From NCBI GenBank assembly GCA_964387675.1, contig CAYLWL010000001.1, positions 1,099 to 65,098 of the forward strand: a stretch of DNA of 64,000 nucleotides. Reading direction: 5' to 3'. Positions within the stretch are counted from its first letter, which is position 1. Each line of letters starts with the position of its first letter. The notes beneath the pieces are model-generated. The model had not been told where the DNA came from. It did no database searches and saw only the letters and a program-made list of their open reading frames with translations. This DNA is from an uncultured Candidatus Saccharibacteria bacterium. Its GTDB lineage: Bacteria; Patescibacteriota; Minisyncoccia; UBA6257; 2-01-FULL-56-20. Shown piece by piece: positions 13,245 to 52,655 of the stretch. The position numbers were made by a program, and so were the translations under genes.

Positions 13245-13373
13245 CCCTCACCTTTCGAGGATTGCGCGGCGGCAATCTCGTTGATTTAATTTCCACGACT
13301 TTTTATTGCGGAATATCATTGTTTTGTTGGAGGCCTCGCCCAGAAGACATTAATCCTCGATAAGGTGAGGGAT
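13245..13373. repeat. MITE-like repeat family L2, copy A, with 21-bp terminal inverted repeats, abutting the hddA-like start codon
   Basis: atccctcacctttcgaggatt ... aatcctcgataaggtgagggat. It is about 95% identical to 23051-23179 in inverted orientation. Confidence 0.8.
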
Positions 13374-13461
13374 CATAAGAAGACTATAGGGCAAACCCTG
13401 TGCTTAGTCAATAAAGTATAAGAGTTTAATTCGAATCGAAAAGAATTTATTTAAACCTCGG

Positions 13462-14403
13462 TCAGCCGAATAGTTTCTTTTTCAACTTATGCGTATTTCC
13501 GTGGCCAAGGAGTCCACGATATGAGGCGGAGGTTTCGTCAGACAGATTTTCACCCAATCGTCTGGCCATCCGCCGCCTTGTCGCGGCCCTCAAAGTCCGG
13601 TGATACGGAAAGTGAACCCAACCGAGGAAGTCGACGCCGGAGGCGAACGTTTTGATAGAAACTTTGTCAGGATGAAGTGATATGTGTAGCCGCGTCTCGA
13701 GAAAACCTGAAGTTTTCGGAATAATGCTTTCCAAGTATCGCTTATCCTCGTGTACAATCACAAAATCGTCGGCATAGCGAACGCAATGGCGAATCTTCAG
13801 CTTCCGCTTCAAGAACTGGTCGAACTCGTTCATGTAAATATTCACGAGGAGCTGGCTCGTGAGGTTGCCAAGCGGCAGGCCGACGCCCGGCTTGTCCTTT
13901 GTATGGAAGCTGTCAATGGTTTCGGCCAAGAGCCATAAAATATCGTTATCTTCGATGTACCGCTTCAAAATGTCTTTTAATGTTCCATGATCGATGCTCG
14001 CGAAAAATTTCCTGATGTCGCATTTAAGGATCCATGCCGTCCGCGCGTGATTGCGCGAGACGACCCTCGTATATTTCTTGAAACGATCCATCGCGCGGTA
14101 CGTGCCTTTGTCGTAGCGACAGGAATACGAATCGAAGATGAATTTCTTATCGAAATAGGGATACAAAATCCGGTAAATCGCGTGGTGCAGCAAGCGGTCG
14201 CGTACTTCGGCCTTGTGGATTTCACGCGGCTTCGGGTCGTTGATTTTGAATGGCCGGTACGGACCGTGCCGGTATGTTTTGTCCGATAATTCCCGGTGAA
14301 GCGCGAGGATATTGCCCGTAAGATTCAAAGAAAACAATGCAACATCTTTGCGTTTTCGCTTGCCGCGTAAAAATTCGCGCCACGCGGAAAGCAGATTTTC
14401 CAC
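13462..14403 (-). CDS. Diversity-generating retroelement (DGR) reverse transcriptase
   Basis: 313 aa. RT motifs 1-7, including YADDFVIV. Carries the DGR-specific motif GLPLGNLTSQLLVNIY where other RTs have QGxxxSP. The N-terminus LSAWREFLRGKRKRKDVALF is typical of Brt-like RTs. Confidence 0.85.
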   Translation of the reverse strand: MENLLSAWREFLRGKRKRKDVALFSLNLTGNILALHRELSDKTYRHGPYRPFKINDPKPREIHKAEVRDRLLHHAIYRILYPYFDKKFIFDSYSCRYDKGTYRAMDRFKKYTRVVSRNHARTAWILKCDIRKFFASIDHGTLKDILKRYIEDNDILWLLAETIDSFHTKDKPGVGLPLGNLTSQLLVNIYMNEFDQFLKRKLKIRHCVRYADDFVIVHEDKRYLESIIPKTSGFLETRLHISLHPDKVSIKTFASGVDFLGWVHFPYHRTLRAATRRRMARRLGENLSDETSASYRGLLGHGNTHKLKKKLFG

Positions 14404-14445
14404 GGAAATGATATCATGGAAATCATGACGCGGCCAGGCGATTCG

Positions 14446-14471
14446 TCTCTCTCTCTCTCTCTCTCTCTCTC
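14446..14471. repeat. (TC)13 dinucleotide microsatellite
   Basis: tctctctctctctctctctctctctc lies in the divergent intergenic region between the RT and the avd-like gene. Confidence 0.9.
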
Positions 14472-14510
14472 GATAAGGCCTCGATTCTCGCGAGAATCAA
14501 AGAGGGGTAT

Positions 14511-14834
14511 TTGTTTTGGATGAATCTTGTGCCGCATATTGCTAAGGGTACCCGATATACGCTCGGTGCGCGAATTGAAAATAAGTTTCTTGATCTTTTG
14601 GAACTGTCCTACGCCGCGTACTTCACGGAAAAAGAAAAGAAAGTGGAGAAAATTACGGAATGCGTCTTCATAACAGACATACTCAAGTTTTTGGTCTCCG
14701 TTGCGTGGGAAGGCGAGGTTATCTCCGACCACCAATGCGAAGGCATCGCGGTAAAACTGGAGGAGATCGGCAAAATGCTCGGCGGCTGGAAAAAGAGTTT
14801 GGGCAATCCCGAAAAGAAAAACCGCGCTCTCTGA
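14511..14834 (+). CDS. Avd-like four-helix-bundle accessory protein, on the opposite strand to the RT and target
   Basis: 107 aa, helical. The C-terminus LEEIGKMLGGWKKSL resembles the Avd C-terminus AEVGRILGSWIARV. It is adjacent to the TR. Confidence 0.5.
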   Translation: MFWMNLVPHIAKGTRYTLGARIENKFLDLLELSYAAYFTEKEKKVEKITECVFITDILKFLVSVAWEGEVISDHQCEGIAVKLEEIGKMLGGWKKSLGNPEKKNRAL

Positions 14835-14855
14835 ACGCGGAAAGAACGAACTTTC

Positions 14856-14982
14856 GGAGGCGGAAGACAAACTCATTGTCGGGATTCCACGTATTGCCCG
14901 GATTCGTCCAATTGTCGTTCAGCCACAGACCGTCTTCGTTTCGTTCCAAGTTGAAGACGTTCGGGTTGCCGTCACGATCGGT
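14856..14982 (-). repeat. DGR template repeat (TR)
   Basis: 127 bp that aligns with 15333-15459. About 18 mismatches, every one at a plus-strand T in TR, which is a sense-strand A. Encodes the Asn-rich sequence GLWLNDNWTNPGNTWNPDNEFVFRLRK. Confidence 0.85.
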
Positions 14983-15307
14983 TCTGTGCGCCGCGCCATC
15001 CGCGCCACTGCCCGTCTAAATAAAGAGACTGGGCTGTATTTTATATGGGAGCATGACTCCACCAGCGCAGCGCACCAAGTTGTTTCTTTTTTGTTGACAA
15101 CTATGCGAATCCTCTCCGTCAAGCCGTAACCGGACGGACTCTCAATATGCATATGCCGGAAGGGTCTCGAAAAACCGCCTGGCCCGAGCGAGGTCGAAGG
15201 CTAGCCGTCCGATATAACCCATCTGATTTAATAATAGCAAAAAATTACGGCGGGATACAAAAAGAATCAAAGGGTTAAAGCGCCAAAGTTTCAGAAACGC
15301 AAAGATT

Positions 15308-17212
15308 CTAAGTTTTCAAGTTTTTCAACTTGCGGAGGCGGAAGACAAACTCATCGTCGGGATCCCACGTATCGCCCGGACCCGTCCAAAGGCCGTACAG
15401 CCACAGACCGCCTCCGTACCGAGCCAAGTAGAAGACGTCCGGGTTGCCGTCACGATCGGCTATTTGTTTCATGCCAATGCGGAACCATTTATTTAGGGGT
15501 TGGTTTGCATATTTGAGCCGATAATGCGGTCCGGTTTCGGCTGGACAGAGTTCCAATCCCAATTCTTCGATGCGTTTGTAAACTTCGTCTGTTGTCGGGT
15601 ATTTGTCTTTGGGAAAACCGAGGTCGCCAACTTTGAGGCGGATGAGAATTTCTTCCTCTGATTTTTTGAGGACGGTGAAATCCTTGCTTTTCAACATATC
15701 CATCGCATAGTCCGAGATGTTGATCTTTTTCTCGCGCATTTCATTAATGAGCGTTTTGGCATCTTTACCGCCGATTTCCAGTTGTTCTTTGCGAATTCTG
15801 CCTTCGGGGAAGGAAGTGTAGACGTGTTCGATGCCATATCTCTGGACTTTGTCGAAGATGCCGGGGACGAGGGAGCCGACATAGGCCTTTGTGTCTTCTT
15901 TGATTTCGGATATGTCTCGTGCGATTTGATCTTTTTCGCACTCAAACACTACTGCCATGTCTTCTTCGGGATTTCTTTGAGAGCGGAGCTCCCTGACGCG
16001 GGGATCATTCGTTCCATAACCAAAGCTTTCTATGGGTGCGTTGATTTCGTAAAGAAAAATAAGGTCGTCTTTCGAGAGCGTTGCGCCTGTTCCTGTCTTT
16101 TTCTTGATCGCGGTTAATGTTTCCATATCGCTGGCCTTCTTTTCGTATTTCTGGCCGTCGGGATGAGCCGCAAGTTTTTCCTTGATTACGTTGTTGATAC
16201 GGGGATCGATGTGCTCGTCTTCGGCCACACCACGGACTTCGGAGATGATTCCACCTGCGCTTACGATCACCGCGCGCGGCACGGTTGGTTTGCCTTCTTT
16301 GTCAAGCGAGTAAAAAATTTCAAGATCGTTTCCTTGAAGATATCTTCGTGCCATAGACTCGCCTCGCAAGCACCAGCCAGTGCCATAAGGAGCGATCGAT
16401 TCTACAAGACGCATTGGGTCGGATCCTTGGGGATATGCTATCCACGTTCCCTCGGTAACCTTGAGTAGTTCTTCGGGTATGGGCTTGAACTCTTCGACGG
16501 CCAAGGCGTAGAGCTTGGCAAAGTTCTTTTGTTTGAGGAGTTGAAGAAAGCTTTGCTTGGTTGCTTCTTCTATGTCGTAGCCGAATTTGACGGGTTCGCC
16601 CCTCTCTTGCCGCTCAAACGATTCAAGCACGATGGCCAGGGCCTCGCGATTGAGGTCGGGAAAGGGAGCAATGGCCCCGCCGGTTCTCTCAGAAAAAGCT
16701 TTCTTTTTCTTGTCGTATCTACCCATACGCAAGATGCTGCGGAAAGCGAAGTATTTGAGATAGTCAGGATATTTGGCGTCATCTGACGCTAGATAATCGA
16801 CCCATTCGTCAAGAGAGTTCTTTTGGTCGGTAGTAATTGTTTCCGCGAGTTCTTTCCGTATATCGCCCGGTATTTCATCAAGGGGGCGGCCTTCTTCTTC
16901 GTGCCTCTTTTTTACGGATTCGAAGTAAGCTTCGGGAATGTCCTCTGGTTTGATGACGAACTGGTCATAGAGGGAGCGCTTCAGCGTCTCGAGATTTCTC
17001 TCTCCTCTTTCGAAACCTTCGTGACCCGCCAGTCGTGCTGGATGAATTACTGATTTTAGTCGGTCGAGATAATTTTGTATGCGGGCGTCTGCTCCTTCTA
17101 CTGTATCGAGCGTGAGCTTTTTCCCTGTCCGTTTTTCGGTACGCTTTGCAGCCCGTTCTACTTCGTGGCTTTTATGCAAGCCATATTTTTCTCTTAAGAA
17201 GCTCTTTTCCAT
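15308..17212 (-). CDS. DGR variable (target) protein with the VR at its C-terminus
   Basis: 634 aa. C-terminus ...RYGGGLWLYGLWTGPGDTWDPDDEFVFRLRKLKNLKT corresponds to the TR-encoded sequence. The N-terminal roughly 560 aa is uncharacterised. Confidence 0.8.
   Translation of the reverse strand: MEKSFLREKYGLHKSHEVERAAKRTEKRTGKKLTLDTVEGADARIQNYLDRLKSVIHPARLAGHEGFERGERNLETLKRSLYDQFVIKPEDIPEAYFESVKKRHEEEGRPLDEIPGDIRKELAETITTDQKNSLDEWVDYLASDDAKYPDYLKYFAFRSILRMGRYDKKKKAFSERTGGAIAPFPDLNREALAIVLESFERQERGEPVKFGYDIEEATKQSFLQLLKQKNFAKLYALAVEEFKPIPEELLKVTEGTWIAYPQGSDPMRLVESIAPYGTGWCLRGESMARRYLQGNDLEIFYSLDKEGKPTVPRAVIVSAGGIISEVRGVAEDEHIDPRINNVIKEKLAAHPDGQKYEKKASDMETLTAIKKKTGTGATLSKDDLIFLYEINAPIESFGYGTNDPRVRELRSQRNPEEDMAVVFECEKDQIARDISEIKEDTKAYVGSLVPGIFDKVQRYGIEHVYTSFPEGRIRKEQLEIGGKDAKTLINEMREKKINISDYAMDMLKSKDFTVLKKSEEEILIRLKVGDLGFPKDKYPTTDEVYKRIEELGLELCPAETGPHYRLKYANQPLNKWFRIGMKQIADRDGNPDVFYLARYGGGLWLYGLWTGPGDTWDPDDEFVFRLRKLKNLKT
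15333..15459 (-). repeat. DGR variable repeat (VR) with the IMH-like GC-rich 3' end
   Basis: It differs from the TR only where TR has A: TR Asn, Glu and Asp codons become Tyr, Leu, Gly, Asp and Ala. The shared 3' end GTCTTCCGCCTCC is identical to TR. Confidence 0.85.
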
Positions 17213-17255
17213 GAGAGTATTATGCCGCGGAAATTGATGGAAATCAATACAAGAA

Positions 17256-17849
17256 TCAAAACAGCGTCGCCATACTGCTTGCGAAACTTACCCTCATGAC
17301 TTCGCCGGTCATCTTGTTCGGAACCAAGAGCGACCTGTCTTTCTGGTAAAGATCATAGAGTTCTTTCGTTAGTTTCACGTCGTTCAAGCAATAGGATTTC
17401 AATTCTTCGATTTTTCCGTCCTTCCACAGACCGATCGCCTCCGAGCCGTGGCGATCTTTTTTCACGCCCAAGTTCGCCTCGGAAAGCTTGCTCAAGCTTA
17501 TCCTCTGCCCCACCATCCGCTCGATCTCTTCCGAAAGGTCCACGCGTTCTTTTCCCCAAATTCTTGGAGCGGAGGGTCCGAGTCGCTGAAAATGGAGGTT
17601 CAAAACCGGAACGTCGTAGCGGTTGATGCTGAATCCAACAATCCTGTCGCAACTATGAAAAATATCTGTCAGCTTTTCCAGTTCGTTTTCGGCAAAGCAG
17701 GAATATGTATCCTGCGCGTAGGAATAAACCCCGACAGCGGAAATTTTGAGCGCATCAAAATTATCCCAGCCGACATCAGGATCGGTAAAAAAGTTTTGCG
17801 TTTCGATGTCGAATACGAGGGTGTCCATTGTAGTAAATGCAAAGGTCAA
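17256..17849 (-). CDS. DEDDy-type 3'-5' exonuclease domain protein
   Basis: Exo I motif VFDIETQNF. Exo III motif YCLNDVKLTKELYD. Confidence 0.55.
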   Translation of the reverse strand: MTFAFTTMDTLVFDIETQNFFTDPDVGWDNFDALKISAVGVYSYAQDTYSCFAENELEKLTDIFHSCDRIVGFSINRYDVPVLNLHFQRLGPSAPRIWGKERVDLSEEIERMVGQRISLSKLSEANLGVKKDRHGSEAIGLWKDGKIEELKSYCLNDVKLTKELYDLYQKDRSLLVPNKMTGEVMRVSFASSMATLF

Positions 17850-17884
17850 ATATCAAAAATCAAAATGTAATTCAAAATGAAAAA

Positions 17885-18256
17885 TTACCTTTTGCCCTTA
17901 AGAGTTAGTACGCTGGATCCGATTATCTTGGAAATTTCTTCAGCTTCCCGGTAAAGGGGTGCTGCCGCAGAACCGATCTCCGGCTTACTTTCTTGCACGA
18001 CAGTCAACCAATACTTAGTTTCGTTTGCAGATTTCAGCGCTATCTCAAAAAATTTGATGTAATCTCTTCTTGAGCTTGAAGATTTAGCTTCGGTAACGTT
18101 CGCGCCGACAGAACTAGCACTCCTGATTAATTGGTCGCTAAGCGACCACAAACTTCTATGCACGCCCAACTTTTCGCAAAAAGATATAATATCTACCGAA
18201 AACCGAATTAATCTCTTAGTAAAATCCTCTTTAAATTTTGCTTTTTCATTTTGCAT
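17885..18256 (-). CDS. Four-helix-bundle protein (23S-rRNA-IVS / Avd family)
   Basis: SDQLIRSASSVGANVTEAKSSSSRRDYIKFFEIALKSANETKYWL matches the family consensus (SQ..R...SI..NIAEG ... F..iA.gS..E). Confidence 0.7.
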   Translation of the reverse strand: MQNEKAKFKEDFTKRLIRFSVDIISFCEKLGVHRSLWSLSDQLIRSASSVGANVTEAKSSSSRRDYIKFFEIALKSANETKYWLTVVQESKPEIGSAAAPLYREAEEISKIIGSSVLTLKGKR

Positions 18257-18281
18257 TTTGACTTTTGATTCTTGATCTTCT

Positions 18282-18761
18282 TCAAACGTGCCTGTCGGCC
18301 ACGTTCGACGCCGCGTAACTCTCCGGCTTCGTTTTCGGCTCGAAGTTATTTGCCCGAATGATGGAAACCACCTCCTGAATCATTTGCTTCGTCGGGCCGT
18401 TCTCGCCGATGTCGGCGTGAATTTCGAAAGAAAAAACCGGGAGGTCAAACTTTTTGAGTTCCGAAAGCACTTCTTTCGCGATATCGAGCGATACCAAAAC
18501 CTCGCGTATGATCCTGTCGCGGAGCGTGTGCATTTTGTCGAGTTCGAATCTTCGCCAAAAATACCTGCCGCCGTTCCCGATCCGGTGCACCACAACGGCC
18601 GTAACGAAATCGGCCCGGTTGCCGCTCAAAAGCTCCGAATCGGTGCCGATGGTCACTTTGTACTTTCTCAAGGGTTCCGTTCGCATGAACGCGATAACCT
18701 CGGCGACCACTTCGGGAACCGTGAGGCGCAATCCCAATGAACTGTGAAGAAATTCGGGCAT
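18282..18761 (-). CDS. DUF458/YkuK-like RNase H-fold protein
   Basis: MPEFLHSS...KVTIGTDSE...FVTAVVVH pattern. The first ATG of the ORF (18803) may not be the true start. Confidence 0.45.
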   Translation of the reverse strand: MPEFLHSSLGLRLTVPEVVAEVIAFMRTEPLRKYKVTIGTDSELLSGNRADFVTAVVVHRIGNGGRYFWRRFELDKMHTLRDRIIREVLVSLDIAKEVLSELKKFDLPVFSFEIHADIGENGPTKQMIQEVVSIIRANNFEPKTKPESYAASNVADRHV

Positions 18762-18863
18762 GAATATTGTGGTAATAGTATGTTTTGCTTGACAAAATGT
18801 CAAACTCCTCTTGCGTAAAAAAAGATTATCTGGTAGTATGCCATTAGCTTTTATGAACGGTCA

Positions 18864-19235: not shown

Positions 19236-19317
19236 CGCCGCGAAACTGTTCAACGCCCGGTCACCCGACTGGGCATCAATTTTTTTATTAAAATTGTTTC
19301 CGATTGAAATTAAAATC

Positions 19318-19360
19318 ATTTCCGTTATAACATAATATTATGTTATAACGGAAACGATTT
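19318..19360. terminator. Perfect 17-bp-arm palindrome between convergent genes (bidirectional terminator or operator)
   Basis: ttccgttataacataat|attatgttataacggaa. Confidence 0.55.
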
Positions 19361-19381
19361 TTCTTTTCTTTACTCCAATCC

Positions 19382-32960: not shown

Positions 32961-33881
32961 ATGGCAGAAGTCGACAAACTCCTCCACGATTACCTCAACT
33001 ATCTCGAAATAGAGAGAAACCGTTCGCCGAAGACGCGCGAAAACTACGAGCGCTATCTCAAGGAATTTTTGAAGTTCTCCGGGGCTAAATCCCCCAACGA
33101 TATTACCGAGGACGCCGTCCGGGAATTCCGCCTAGCCATGGCTAGGCCTAAGTTCCATGGAAAAAACCTCAAAAAAATAACCCAGAGCTATTATGTCATC
33201 GCCCTGCGGAACTTTTTGAAGTATCTCGCGAGGCGCGACATAAAAACGCTCGCCCCCGAAAAAATAGAACTTCCCAAAATCCCCGATCGGCAGATAGAAA
33301 TTCTGGACTACAAAGATTTAGAACGATTGATGCAATCCCCCAGAGGGAATAGCTTGAGAGATCTTCGCGACAAGGCGATTCTCGAACTGTTCTTCTCGAC
33401 GGGGCTCCGGCTCTCCGAACTCTGCTCGCTCGAGAGATACCTGGATCTCGCCCGCGGCGAAGTGAGTGTCCGCGGCAAAGGAGAAAAGTTGCGGGTGGTG
33501 TTTCTCTCCGACGGCGCGAAAAGGGCAATCAAAAATTATCTCGACAAAAGGACGGACGCGGAAGAGTCGCTTTTCGTGAGTTTGGCGAAAGGGTCAAGGG
33601 TCAAGGGTCAAGGGTCAAGGGTTATCGGCCCGATCACGCCGCGGGCGGTGCAACGAGTGGTGGAACGCCGCGCGCGCGAAGCCGGCATTGCGAAAAAAAT
33701 CCACGCGCACCAACTAAGGCATAGCTTCGCGACAGACCTTTTGATAAACGGCGCGGATATCCGCTCCGTGCAAGAACTGCTCGGCCACTCGAACATATCA
33801 ACGACGCAAGTATACACCCACCTCACCAACAAAGAATTGCGCGAGGTGCACAAGGCGTTTCACGCGAGACGAAGAAAATAG
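32961..33881 (+). CDS. Tyrosine recombinase XerC/XerD-like
   Basis: Catalytic residues R...HxxR...Y (HQLRHSFATDLL...GHSNISTTQVYTH). Confidence 0.8.
   Translation: MAEVDKLLHDYLNYLEIERNRSPKTRENYERYLKEFLKFSGAKSPNDITEDAVREFRLAMARPKFHGKNLKKITQSYYVIALRNFLKYLARRDIKTLAPEKIELPKIPDRQIEILDYKDLERLMQSPRGNSLRDLRDKAILELFFSTGLRLSELCSLERYLDLARGEVSVRGKGEKLRVVFLSDGAKRAIKNYLDKRTDAEESLFVSLAKGSRVKGQGSRVIGPITPRAVQRVVERRAREAGIAKKIHAHQLRHSFATDLLINGADIRSVQELLGHSNISTTQVYTHLTNKELREVHKAFHARRRK
33592..33623 (+). repeat. GGGTCAAG x4 tandem octamer inside the xerC/D-like CDS
   Basis: Read directly. It encodes KGSRVKGQGSRV. The unit length is not a multiple of 3. Confidence 0.9.
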
Positions 33882-51416: not shown

Positions 51417-52655
51417 ATGCGCGACAAAGTATTAGAAAGCTTAATCAAAAAGGAAATCGGGCGTCAGAAGGAAACGCTCGACTTGATTCCGTCGGAAAAC
51501 ATCGCCTCGCCCGCTGTTTTGCGCGCGCTCGGCTCGCCGCTCGCCAATAAATATTCCGAAGGGTATCCGAAGAAAAGATACTATGCGGGTAATTCCGTTA
51601 TTGACGAGATTGAATTGCTGGCGCAAGAGCGGGCCCGAAAAGTTTTCCGGCTTGGTAAAAACTGGCACGTGAACGTCCAGCCATATTCCGGCTCTCCGGC
51701 GAATATGGCTGTCTATTTCGCGCTTCTGAAACCGGGTGACAAGATTATGGGAATGAGTTTGCCGTTTGGGGGGCACCTCACGCATGGATGGCGAGCCAAT
51801 TTTTCGGGGCAGCTCTATGCGTCGATACAATACAAGCTCAAGCAGGATGGTTTTCTGGACTACAAAGAAATCTACCGCATGGCCAAGAAAGAGAAACCAA
51901 AAATCATCGTCGCCGGCGCGACTGCGTATCCAAGAATCTTCGACTTCAAAAAACTCGGCGGCATCGCAAGGAATGTCGGCGCGTACTTTCTTGCGGATAT
52001 TTCGCATATCGCGGGACTCGTCGCCGCGGGCGCGCATCCATCGCCATTCCCCTACGCCGACGTGGTGACCACAACAACCCACAAAACTCTCCGCGGGCCG
52101 AGAGGGGCGATTATATTTAGCAAAGAGCAAAGAGCAAAGAGCAAAGAGCAAGTGGTAACGATTGCGGAGGCGATAGATAAAGCTGTTTTTCCCGGACTCC
52201 AGGGCGGGCCGCACGATAATCAGACTGCGGCAATCGCCACGGCGCTTTTCGAAGCGAACACAACACAATTCAAAAAGTACGGACGCCAAACCGTGAAAAA
52301 CGCCAAAGTGCTCGCTCGCGAACTCACGCGGCTCGGATTCAACCTCGTAAGCGGCGGCACGGACAATCACTTGATACTTATCGACCTGACAAATTTGGGC
52401 ATCTCCGGCCGGGAGGCGCAAGATCGCCTTGAGGCGAGCGGAATAATAACAAACAGGAATGCCGTGCCCTACGACACGCGCTCGCCGTTCGATCCATCGG
52501 GAATCCGCATCGGCACGCCGGCCCTCACCACGCGCGGGATGAAGGAGAGAGAAATGAGAGAAGTCGCGGAGTTGATTTCTGACATACTCATACGGCGCAA
52601 AGTAACGAGCGTCGCAGTGCGGCAGCTTTGCAGACAATTCCCGCTTCCGTATTAA
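51417..52655 (+). CDS. glyA: Serine hydroxymethyltransferase
   Basis: PLP-lysine region TTTHKTLRGPRG, and SHMT N-terminal motifs. Confidence 0.9.
   Translation: MRDKVLESLIKKEIGRQKETLDLIPSENIASPAVLRALGSPLANKYSEGYPKKRYYAGNSVIDEIELLAQERARKVFRLGKNWHVNVQPYSGSPANMAVYFALLKPGDKIMGMSLPFGGHLTHGWRANFSGQLYASIQYKLKQDGFLDYKEIYRMAKKEKPKIIVAGATAYPRIFDFKKLGGIARNVGAYFLADISHIAGLVAAGAHPSPFPYADVVTTTTHKTLRGPRGAIIFSKEQRAKSKEQVVTIAEAIDKAVFPGLQGGPHDNQTAAIATALFEANTTQFKKYGRQTVKNAKVLARELTRLGFNLVSGGTDNHLILIDLTNLGISGREAQDRLEASGIITNRNAVPYDTRSPFDPSGIRIGTPALTTRGMKEREMREVAELISDILIRRKVTSVAVRQLCRQFPLPY
52120..52147 (+). repeat. GCAAAGA x4 tandem heptad inside glyA
   Basis: Read directly. It encodes the KEQRAKSKEQ insert. The unit length is not a multiple of 3. 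Confidence 0.9.

Follow-up and report, generated by a model that had tools for sequence, protein, structure and literature searches.

Of the diversity-generating retroelements (DGRs) in the candidate phyla radiation (CPR), 90% were reported by Wu et al. (2018, PMC5758913) to have one layout, architecture B3 or TR-(avd)-RT, which is almost never seen outside the CPR; in it, the avd gene (accessory variability determinant) lies on the reverse strand between the template repeat (TR) and the reverse transcriptase (RT) gene. A CPR-restricted DGR clade (clade 2), whose targets carry no recognisable domains, was described by Roux et al. (2021, PMC8144416). The element treated here lies in a 64-kb stretch of DNA (contig CAYLWL010000001.1, positions 1,099 to 65,098, referred to as the window) and was identified with high confidence as a complete, chromosomal DGR in a Candidatus Liptonbacteria (CPR/Patescibacteria) genome. 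Its layout is typical of CPR: a target gene with the variable repeat (VR), the TR, avd on the opposite strand and the RT, with all protein parts intact. The window matched contig JACQKV010000018.1 of assembly GCA_016204365.1 without mismatch, and the target protein had a 100% identical counterpart, annotated as hypothetical, in a Candidatus Liptonbacteria metagenome-assembled genome. Related loci were collected via the target family (80 genome loci) and via the RT family (80 metagenome loci), giving 160 loci. The reverse-strand avd between TR and RT that defines B3 was found in the window and in 85 related cassettes, so that gene order and strands agree with the CPR B3 DGRs, as do the host phylum group and a target without transmembrane segment or recognisable domain; nothing essential differs. 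To clade 2, compared by description and not by RT tree, the likeness is one of host and of domain-less target.

The DGR of Bordetella phage BPP-1 (mtd-avd-TR-brt) resembles the window element in its same-clade RT, its Avd, the adenine-specific transfer from TR to VR, a VR that lies at the C-terminal end of a domain of (here putative) ligand-binding type, and a GC-rich end resembling an initiation of mutagenic homing (IMH) site. Both also have a stem-loop immediately downstream of the TR; the one of the phage, Sp 3-33, binds Avd (10.1101/2023.10.23.563531). All BPP-1 genes lie on one strand, whereas avd is antisense here. The essential non-coding RNA of BPP-1 (Sp) is all 3' of TR, where it comprises the Avd-binding stem-loop, the priming A56, the cPRT stop, the thumb ring and the bRT-binding stem-loop (10.1101/2023.10.23.563531), whereas in the window the 3' side is antisense avd and the structured RNA lies 5'. 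The BPP-1 target is a phage tail fibre, and the target here a cellular, apparently cytoplasmic protein.

Table 1. Features of the retroelement locus and of the genes flanking its target (positions in the window)
Feature	Position	Strand	Remarks
DGR reverse transcriptase (RT)	13462..14403	minus	313 aa from GTG start; PF00078, phrog_1423, 8ub7_A
Extended -10 promoter-like motif TGATATCAT	14409..14417	plus	avd direction; overlaps RT codons D-I-I
Simple sequence repeat	14446..14471	unstranded	(TC)13 on plus, (GA)13 in RT sense; in divergent avd-RT spacer
avd 5' leader	14483..14507	plus	Palindrome GATTCTCGCGAGAATC, then Shine-Dalgarno-like AAGAGGGG; read from sequence
avd, accessory variability determinant	14511..14834	plus	107 aa from TTG start; antisense to TR, RT and target
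Hairpin CCGCGTTCAGAGAGCGCGG, then UUUUUCUUUU	14812..14840	minus	Directly 3' of TR
Template repeat (TR)	14855-14981	minus	127 nt, 33 adenines, 10 AAY codons
Structured non-coding 5' leader of TR RNA	14982..15225	minus	~245 nt, 8 helices
Extended -10 promoter-like motif TGCTATTAT	15232..15240	minus	T-run before it; presumed TR RNA promoter
Target gene	15308..17212	minus	634 aa; VR codes C-terminal tip
Small AT-rich inverted repeat CAAGTT-GAAA-AACTTG	15317-15332	minus	Directly 3' of VR homology
Variable repeat (VR)	15333-15459	minus	Offset 478 to TR; 3' end of target open reading frame
RNase H-fold 3'-5' exonuclease-like gene	17256-17849		Neighbour of target
Four-helix-bundle gene	17885-18256		123 aa; generic 23S rRNA-IVS family; TIGR02436, PF05635
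PF04308 gene	18282-18803		Neighbour

A repeat search of the region returned one long direct repeat (14849-14988 versus 15327-15466, 85% identity), which contains the TR and the VR. Within the 127-nt core 17 positions were mismatched, all 17 of them at TR adenines on the minus (coding) strand (hypergeometric P = 2.2e-12 for 33 A in 127 nt), and none of the 94 non-A positions of the TR differed. The sequence-only reading of this DNA had claimed about 18 differences, every one at a TR adenine, and had proposed a pairwise alignment tabulated by TR base; with no mismatch outside A in the core, this observation on the repeats is confirmed. The repeat pair also stood as claimed, save that the register was one base off, the TR having been placed at 14856-14982. 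One further A mismatch (14982/15460) marks the 5' edge of the homology, outside the core. Read in the frame of the target, Asn codons of the TR (AAC/AAT) appear in the VR as Tyr, Asp, Leu and Gly, the same changes that had been named earlier, and GAA, GAC and CGA codons were changed as well. The pattern extends to the relatives, in which 1090 of 1204 mismatches over 55 TR/VR pairs fell at TR-A.

The IMH-like 3' end was found identical in both repeats, as had been stated: GTCTTCCGCCTCC matched, and the final 22 nt of the core, GAGTTTGTCTTCCGCCTCCG (VR copy 15333-15354), are the same in TR and VR and belong to a shared GC-rich segment. Just outside the core, at 14854/15332, the TR has A and the VR has C (TR ...CCGAAAG versus VR ...CCGCAAG). 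Because this difference is kept in nearly all relatives, it looks like a discriminator between IMH and IMH* and not like a product of mutagenesis; at sequence level, then, IMH (VR) and IMH* (TR) are distinguished by 22 nt of identity followed by C versus A. The VR had been taken for the last 127 bp of the target gene, but the reading frame runs on past it for 25 nt to the stop at 15308. Downstream of the IMH there is only the 6-bp AT-rich repeat listed in Table 1, unlike the GC-rich cruciform of BPP-1, and a weaker AAGTT...AACTT occurs in many relatives on the 3' side of the VR; a GC-rich inverted repeat at this place is absent from most DGRs (PMC5758913). An A-tolerant scan of the whole 64-kb window with the TR returned no further copies of the VR.

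The RT carries the DGR motif and the YADD box claimed for it, with GNLTSQLLVNIY (GNLTSQ) at residue 179 and YADD at residue 210, and it is full length relative to 23 aligned RTs. Profile matches were obtained to PF00078 (1.4e-19) and phrog_1423 (1.9e-107). Among solved structures the best match was 8ub7_A (E 5.9e-44), ahead of group II RTs (3e-19) and retron-type RTs (4e-19). The structure 8ub7_A was taken to be the Bordetella phage DGR RT (bRT) because the numbering of the aligned residues I181, G182, Q187, D138, D215 and D216 agrees with that of the bRT residues in the cryo-EM preprint (10.1101/2023.10.23.563531). By score in this search the protein does not group with group II or retron-type RTs, which the sequence-only reading had given as grounds for refutation, and its assignment to the DGR type, closer to bRT than to either of these, is supported. 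An exact-protein look-up of the RT gave no match.

The avd gene lies between TR and RT on the strand opposite to both. Its product matched PF22296 bAvd (2.2e-14), phrog_3206 'Avd protein of DGR' (1.6e-17) and NF033474 (1.1e-15, under the NCBI curated cut-off); NCBI annotates it as 104 aa from an ATG at 14520, and an exact-protein look-up of this 104-aa form gave no match. The palindrome ahead of avd and the putative Shine-Dalgarno (SD) sequence that follows it probably form its 5' leader; the GAT...ATC pairing and the CCCTCTTTGA motif of this leader are kept in relatives. Further upstream, over the N-terminal RT codons (N/D)-I-I, 69 of 85 cassettes carry TGATAT(T/C)AT at one constant position, and the Ile codon beneath it is always ATC, giving the G of the TG element. 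In the window this extended -10 motif is a putative avd promoter, and its position would place the simple repeat listed in Table 1 inside the presumed 5' untranslated region (UTR) of avd.

The target has homologues in many CPR phyla, more than 1,500 in all and ~620 aa long. Their N-terminal ~570 residues are well conserved, and the C-terminal ~45 residues form a variable tip of the pattern GMKQIxDRxGxPxVFxLxRxxDGLWLxxxWAxPxxxWxPxxxFVFRLRK, in which x stands at TR-A codons; variability in the family is limited to these codons. Pfam, NCBIfam, PADLOC and PHROG gave no family match for the target. No signal peptide or transmembrane segment was found (maximum Kyte-Doolittle hydropathy 1.12), which suggests a cytoplasmic location. 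For the target, a confident AlphaFold (AF2) model was obtained (pLDDT 89.8, pTM 0.74), and weak matches of the C-type lectin/FGE-like kind were seen. Foldseek against the PDB returned C-type lectin domains at E about 1, and in BFVD the top fold matches were phage PcfJ-like proteins (E 3e-3 to 7e-2, with low TM-scores). No sequence match to the PcfJ-like family PF14284 was found at E <= 1 in 32 members of the target family, so that likeness to these proteins is one of fold matches to the model and not of Pfam sequence. The model may thus weakly resemble PcfJ-like proteins with a lectin-like variable tip; a category of CPR targets in which a PcfJ-like motif precedes the VR has been described (Wu et al. 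2018, PMC5758913).

Among the relatives, a divergent avd adjoins the RT on its upstream side in 85 of 102 RT loci, the remainder being almost all at contig ends, and TR(+) avd(-) RT(+) is a fixed unit. Where both a target homologue and an RT were present (48 loci), this unit lay on the strand of the target in 37 and was inverted in 11. For about half of the target homologues in genomes, neither RT nor avd lies within 6 kb (loci L001, L002, L005-L008 and L010 among them), and six loci (L011, L021, L039, L042, L064 and L075) keep only fragments of RT or avd. Such loci suggest frequent loss, and the cassette appears often to be lost while the target gene is retained. A contig from SRR12113420, a sample that also yields the DGR-bearing contig, represents a co-occurring strain (L165) that has nothing corresponding to 13245-17250: target, TR, avd and RT are all missing, and an exonuclease gene 87% identical to that of the window is joined directly to a GHMP-kinase gene (99.9%). 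Target and DGR are therefore a 4-kb accessory module. At one related locus (L017, 6001-11453) the target gene and the TR RNA gene are tandemly duplicated, with two identical VRs and a truncated avd between them.

Upstream of the TR ~270 nt are conserved, including in cassettes inverted relative to the target, and this region is therefore part of the cassette and not the 3' UTR of the target. RNAalifold on an alignment of 23 leader sequences predicted 80 pairs, and compensatory changes occur in 51 of these. Nine helices with 66 pairs were scored: 93.7% of cells pair versus 77% in shuffles, and double changes occurred in 50 pairs. The covariation score was 0.63 versus 0.29 in shuffles (0/500 reached it), and controls in which the partners were slid by 1-3 columns scored 0.12-0.17. 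The leader helices and the promoter motifs are intact in the window. No Rfam match was found for the region upstream of TR, even at E <= 10. The -10-like motif TGCTATTAT ahead of the leader is the presumed promoter of the TR RNA; at the equivalent place most cassettes have TTTTTGnTATAnT, ~7 nt ahead of the conserved leader start CAGATTGGTT.

Directly 3' of the TR stands a GC-rich hairpin of 8 bp (minus strand 14840-14822), followed by the T-run TTTTTCTTTT to ~14812 in the manner of a terminator; the stop codon of the antisense avd falls within its loop. Hairpin and T-run were present in 82 of 82 cassettes examined, in which the stem sequences differ, and compensatory changes were seen in 4/4 stem pairs counted. 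By position the hairpin may correspond to the Avd-binding stem-loop of BPP-1, and it may act as a terminator, as a stem-loop bound by Avd, or in both roles. In single-sequence folds the TR 3' end (CCGAAAG) pairs with the post-hairpin CUUUUCGG, at a place where both strands are coding, which confounds covariation. From these features we infer that the TR is made as an RNA of its own, of ~410 nt, composed of leader, TR and hairpin with U-tract. No description of a structured leader 5' of TR or of a hairpin with U-tract was found in the literature covered, which did not include Paul et al. 2017.

The 107-nt spacer between the divergent avd and RT genes holds the simple repeat, which Tandem Repeats Finder (TRF) returned as 13 perfect copies and which is the sole long dinucleotide repeat in the window. 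A simple repeat stands at the same spacer site in 80 of 85 cassettes, beginning 36-57 nt from the avd start, and is built of different units: (GA)4-21 in ~47 cassettes, poly-G of 7-12 in ~30, (GT)8-17 in three and (CT)16 in one. Repeat density was 9.0 per kb in the spacer versus 0.16 per kb elsewhere in the same loci (56-fold), and outside the spacer only 4 repeats other than poly-A/poly-T occurred in 571 kb. Alleles of different length were seen across samples with identical Avd and flanks, namely (GA)10, 11 and 13 for avd P0231 (L177-L186) and G10 and G11 for avd P0190 (L169-L175); repeat length is variable within single (sister) populations. For the window strain, three of three Logan contigs end in or at the repeat.

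Several functions for the tract were considered and set aside. In a translational frame model the repeat would set the phase between the RT and an upstream start (an ATG antisense to avd, or an SD-proximal ATC, ATT or TTG). Frames relative to upstream starts are about uniform (13:12:11, or roughly 15:18:11 in a second count), and an SD and start codon stand directly ahead of the tract in only 36 of 81 cassettes, so that the model finds no support as a rule for all cassettes. Nor does a simple -35/-10 spacer model suit tracts that range over 8-42 nt, and the avd-RT spacer yielded no sigma-70-like promoter. As an SD sequence of the RT the repeat would suit some poly-G and (GA)n members (tract 3-13 nt from an ATG) only, and the model fails for (GT)n and (CT)n members and for longer spacings. 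A parallel is offered by simple sequence repeat contingency loci (phase variation, as with promoter or 5'-UTR repeats of Haemophilus and Neisseria; PMC12721329, PMC3639595), which likewise combine a hypermutable tract of mono- or dinucleotides, fixed in its site between gene 5' ends or within them, with length polymorphism inside one population (here, sister populations); they differ in that the tract lengths here misfit -35/-10 spacing and show no preferred reading frame. No literature linking simple repeats with DGRs was found.

Taken together, these features are consistent with the following course of events. A dedicated extended -10 promoter would drive the TR as a separate transcript, this template RNA consisting of the structured 5' leader, the TR and the 3' hairpin with U-tract. 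A complex of RT and Avd would bind this RNA, reverse-transcribe the TR and misincorporate opposite adenines; the cDNA would then take the place of the VR, with the GC-rich 3' segment common to both repeats as guide, and the C of the VR versus the A of the TR beside that segment would prevent the TR from acting as recipient. Counting the ten AAY codons only, over 10^11 protein variants would be possible. Expression of avd and RT would be divergent, from the spacer with the hypermutable (GA)13. More tentatively, DGRs of this CPR clade may be switchable hypermutators, in which the simple repeat toggles or tunes RT and/or Avd, with a rearranged template RNA. Different repeat units would have been recruited at one site, the avd 5'-UTR and RT 5' end, and at any time only a subpopulation would diversify the target; the template would be a small RNA standing on its own, with its large scaffold for protein binding and priming 5' of the TR, where that of BPP-1 is 3'.

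A number of points weigh against the reading of this locus as a complete DGR of the CPR type. Three assemblies from different samples have one identical target protein and VR for the window strain, and the 90% identity cluster of the target holds a single member. The only start of the RT is a GTG, with no obvious SD sequence, and at 13 repeat units neither the SD-proximal ATC nor the upstream ATG is in the RT frame. The promoter, the terminator and the RNA-protein contacts are drawn from motifs alone. In a rival reading the element is complete in sequence yet not at work in the population sequenced: with no in-frame RT start behind a ribosome-binding site at (GA)13, cDNA would be made only once the repeat slips, and the VR would be the frozen product of earlier activity. 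At (GA)13 there is no canonical or near-cognate start in the RT frame upstream of the repeat, and none canonical ahead of the GTG at V-ENLL, which is the only start in frame; twelve units, (GA)12, would bring the ATC that follows GAGG into frame. The single VR over three samples and the polymorphism of repeat length within sister populations point the same way. This explanation is nevertheless doubtful: no phase of the repeat is favoured across cassettes, fewer than half of them have an SD and start just ahead of it, and many poly-G members carry an ATG downstream of the repeat. In the sister population, moreover, the VR diversifies though only alleles of 10, 11 and 13 units were seen. That sister element (the P0231 avd, 76% identical to that of the window) has at least six VR versions over its ten contigs, with differences almost only at TR-A, and elements of the clade are therefore active in nature.

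That the locus is instead a decaying remnant, a relic repeat pair beside non-functional RT and Avd, would accord with the many target relatives that have no RT or avd within 6 kb or only fragments of them, and with the co-occurring strain that lacks the entire module; but the reading frames of the window are full length when set beside the aligned RTs, the catalytic YADD is intact, as are leader helices and promoter motifs, and zero non-A mismatches between TR and VR argue against long inactivity or decay. A remnant is accordingly improbable. Confusion with a group II intron or retron RT beside a chance duplication can be put at next to nothing, although the top NCBIfam match of the RT was a group II intron RT/maturase model (141 bits, under the cut-off of 300). 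The match to bRT was better by 25 orders of magnitude in the PDB search, no Rfam family of group II intron or retron RNA was found near the RT, the 313-aa protein has no maturase or endonuclease extension, and a group II or retron identity is refuted by these findings together with the 17 of 17 mismatches on A. The reading as a complete CPR-type DGR is thus retained.

Considered alone, this is a CPR DGR of the ordinary sort; what merits follow-up is a pair of features common to the clade, the structured RNA leader and the hypervariable repeat. The template RNA of the commonest CPR DGR type would be defined by its promoter, eight covarying 5' helices and 3' hairpin, which is what reconstitution needs, and its polarity is opposite to that of the only mechanistically studied DGR. 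The repeat, hypervariable within populations and located in the avd-RT spacer of almost all cassettes, would give the first indication of stochastic on/off control of targeted hypermutation. The target is widespread and apparently intracellular, and with roughly half of its homologues adjoining a DGR cassette and the rest without one, it offers an entry point to what CPR cells must recognise so variably.

The element had earlier been described as a complete DGR that reached to 18256 and included plural Avd-like genes. The RT, the TR, the VR-bearing target and one Avd were borne out; the further Avd-like gene and the limit at 18256 were not. The gene at 17885-18256 is a four-helix bundle of the TIGR02436/PF05635 type, and tblastn matched it in 0 of 160 related loci, the PF04308 gene in 0 of 160 and the exonuclease gene in 1 of 160. 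All three were rejected as parts of the DGR, and since these neighbours are nearly absent from the related loci the element extends over ~13462-17212.

The four-helix-bundle gene is flanked by a 16-nt inverted repeat (17869-17884/18242-18257), with short heptamer tandem repeats on either side of it (region 17846-18267). A 60-nt palindrome (19307-19366) with two 30-nt arms, 90% complementary and without spacer, lies in the intergenic gap upstream of a phosphomannomutase-like gene. Perfect heptamer tandem repeats were also found at 33589-33622 (AAGGGTC x4.9) and at 52119-52151 (AGCAAAG x4.7).

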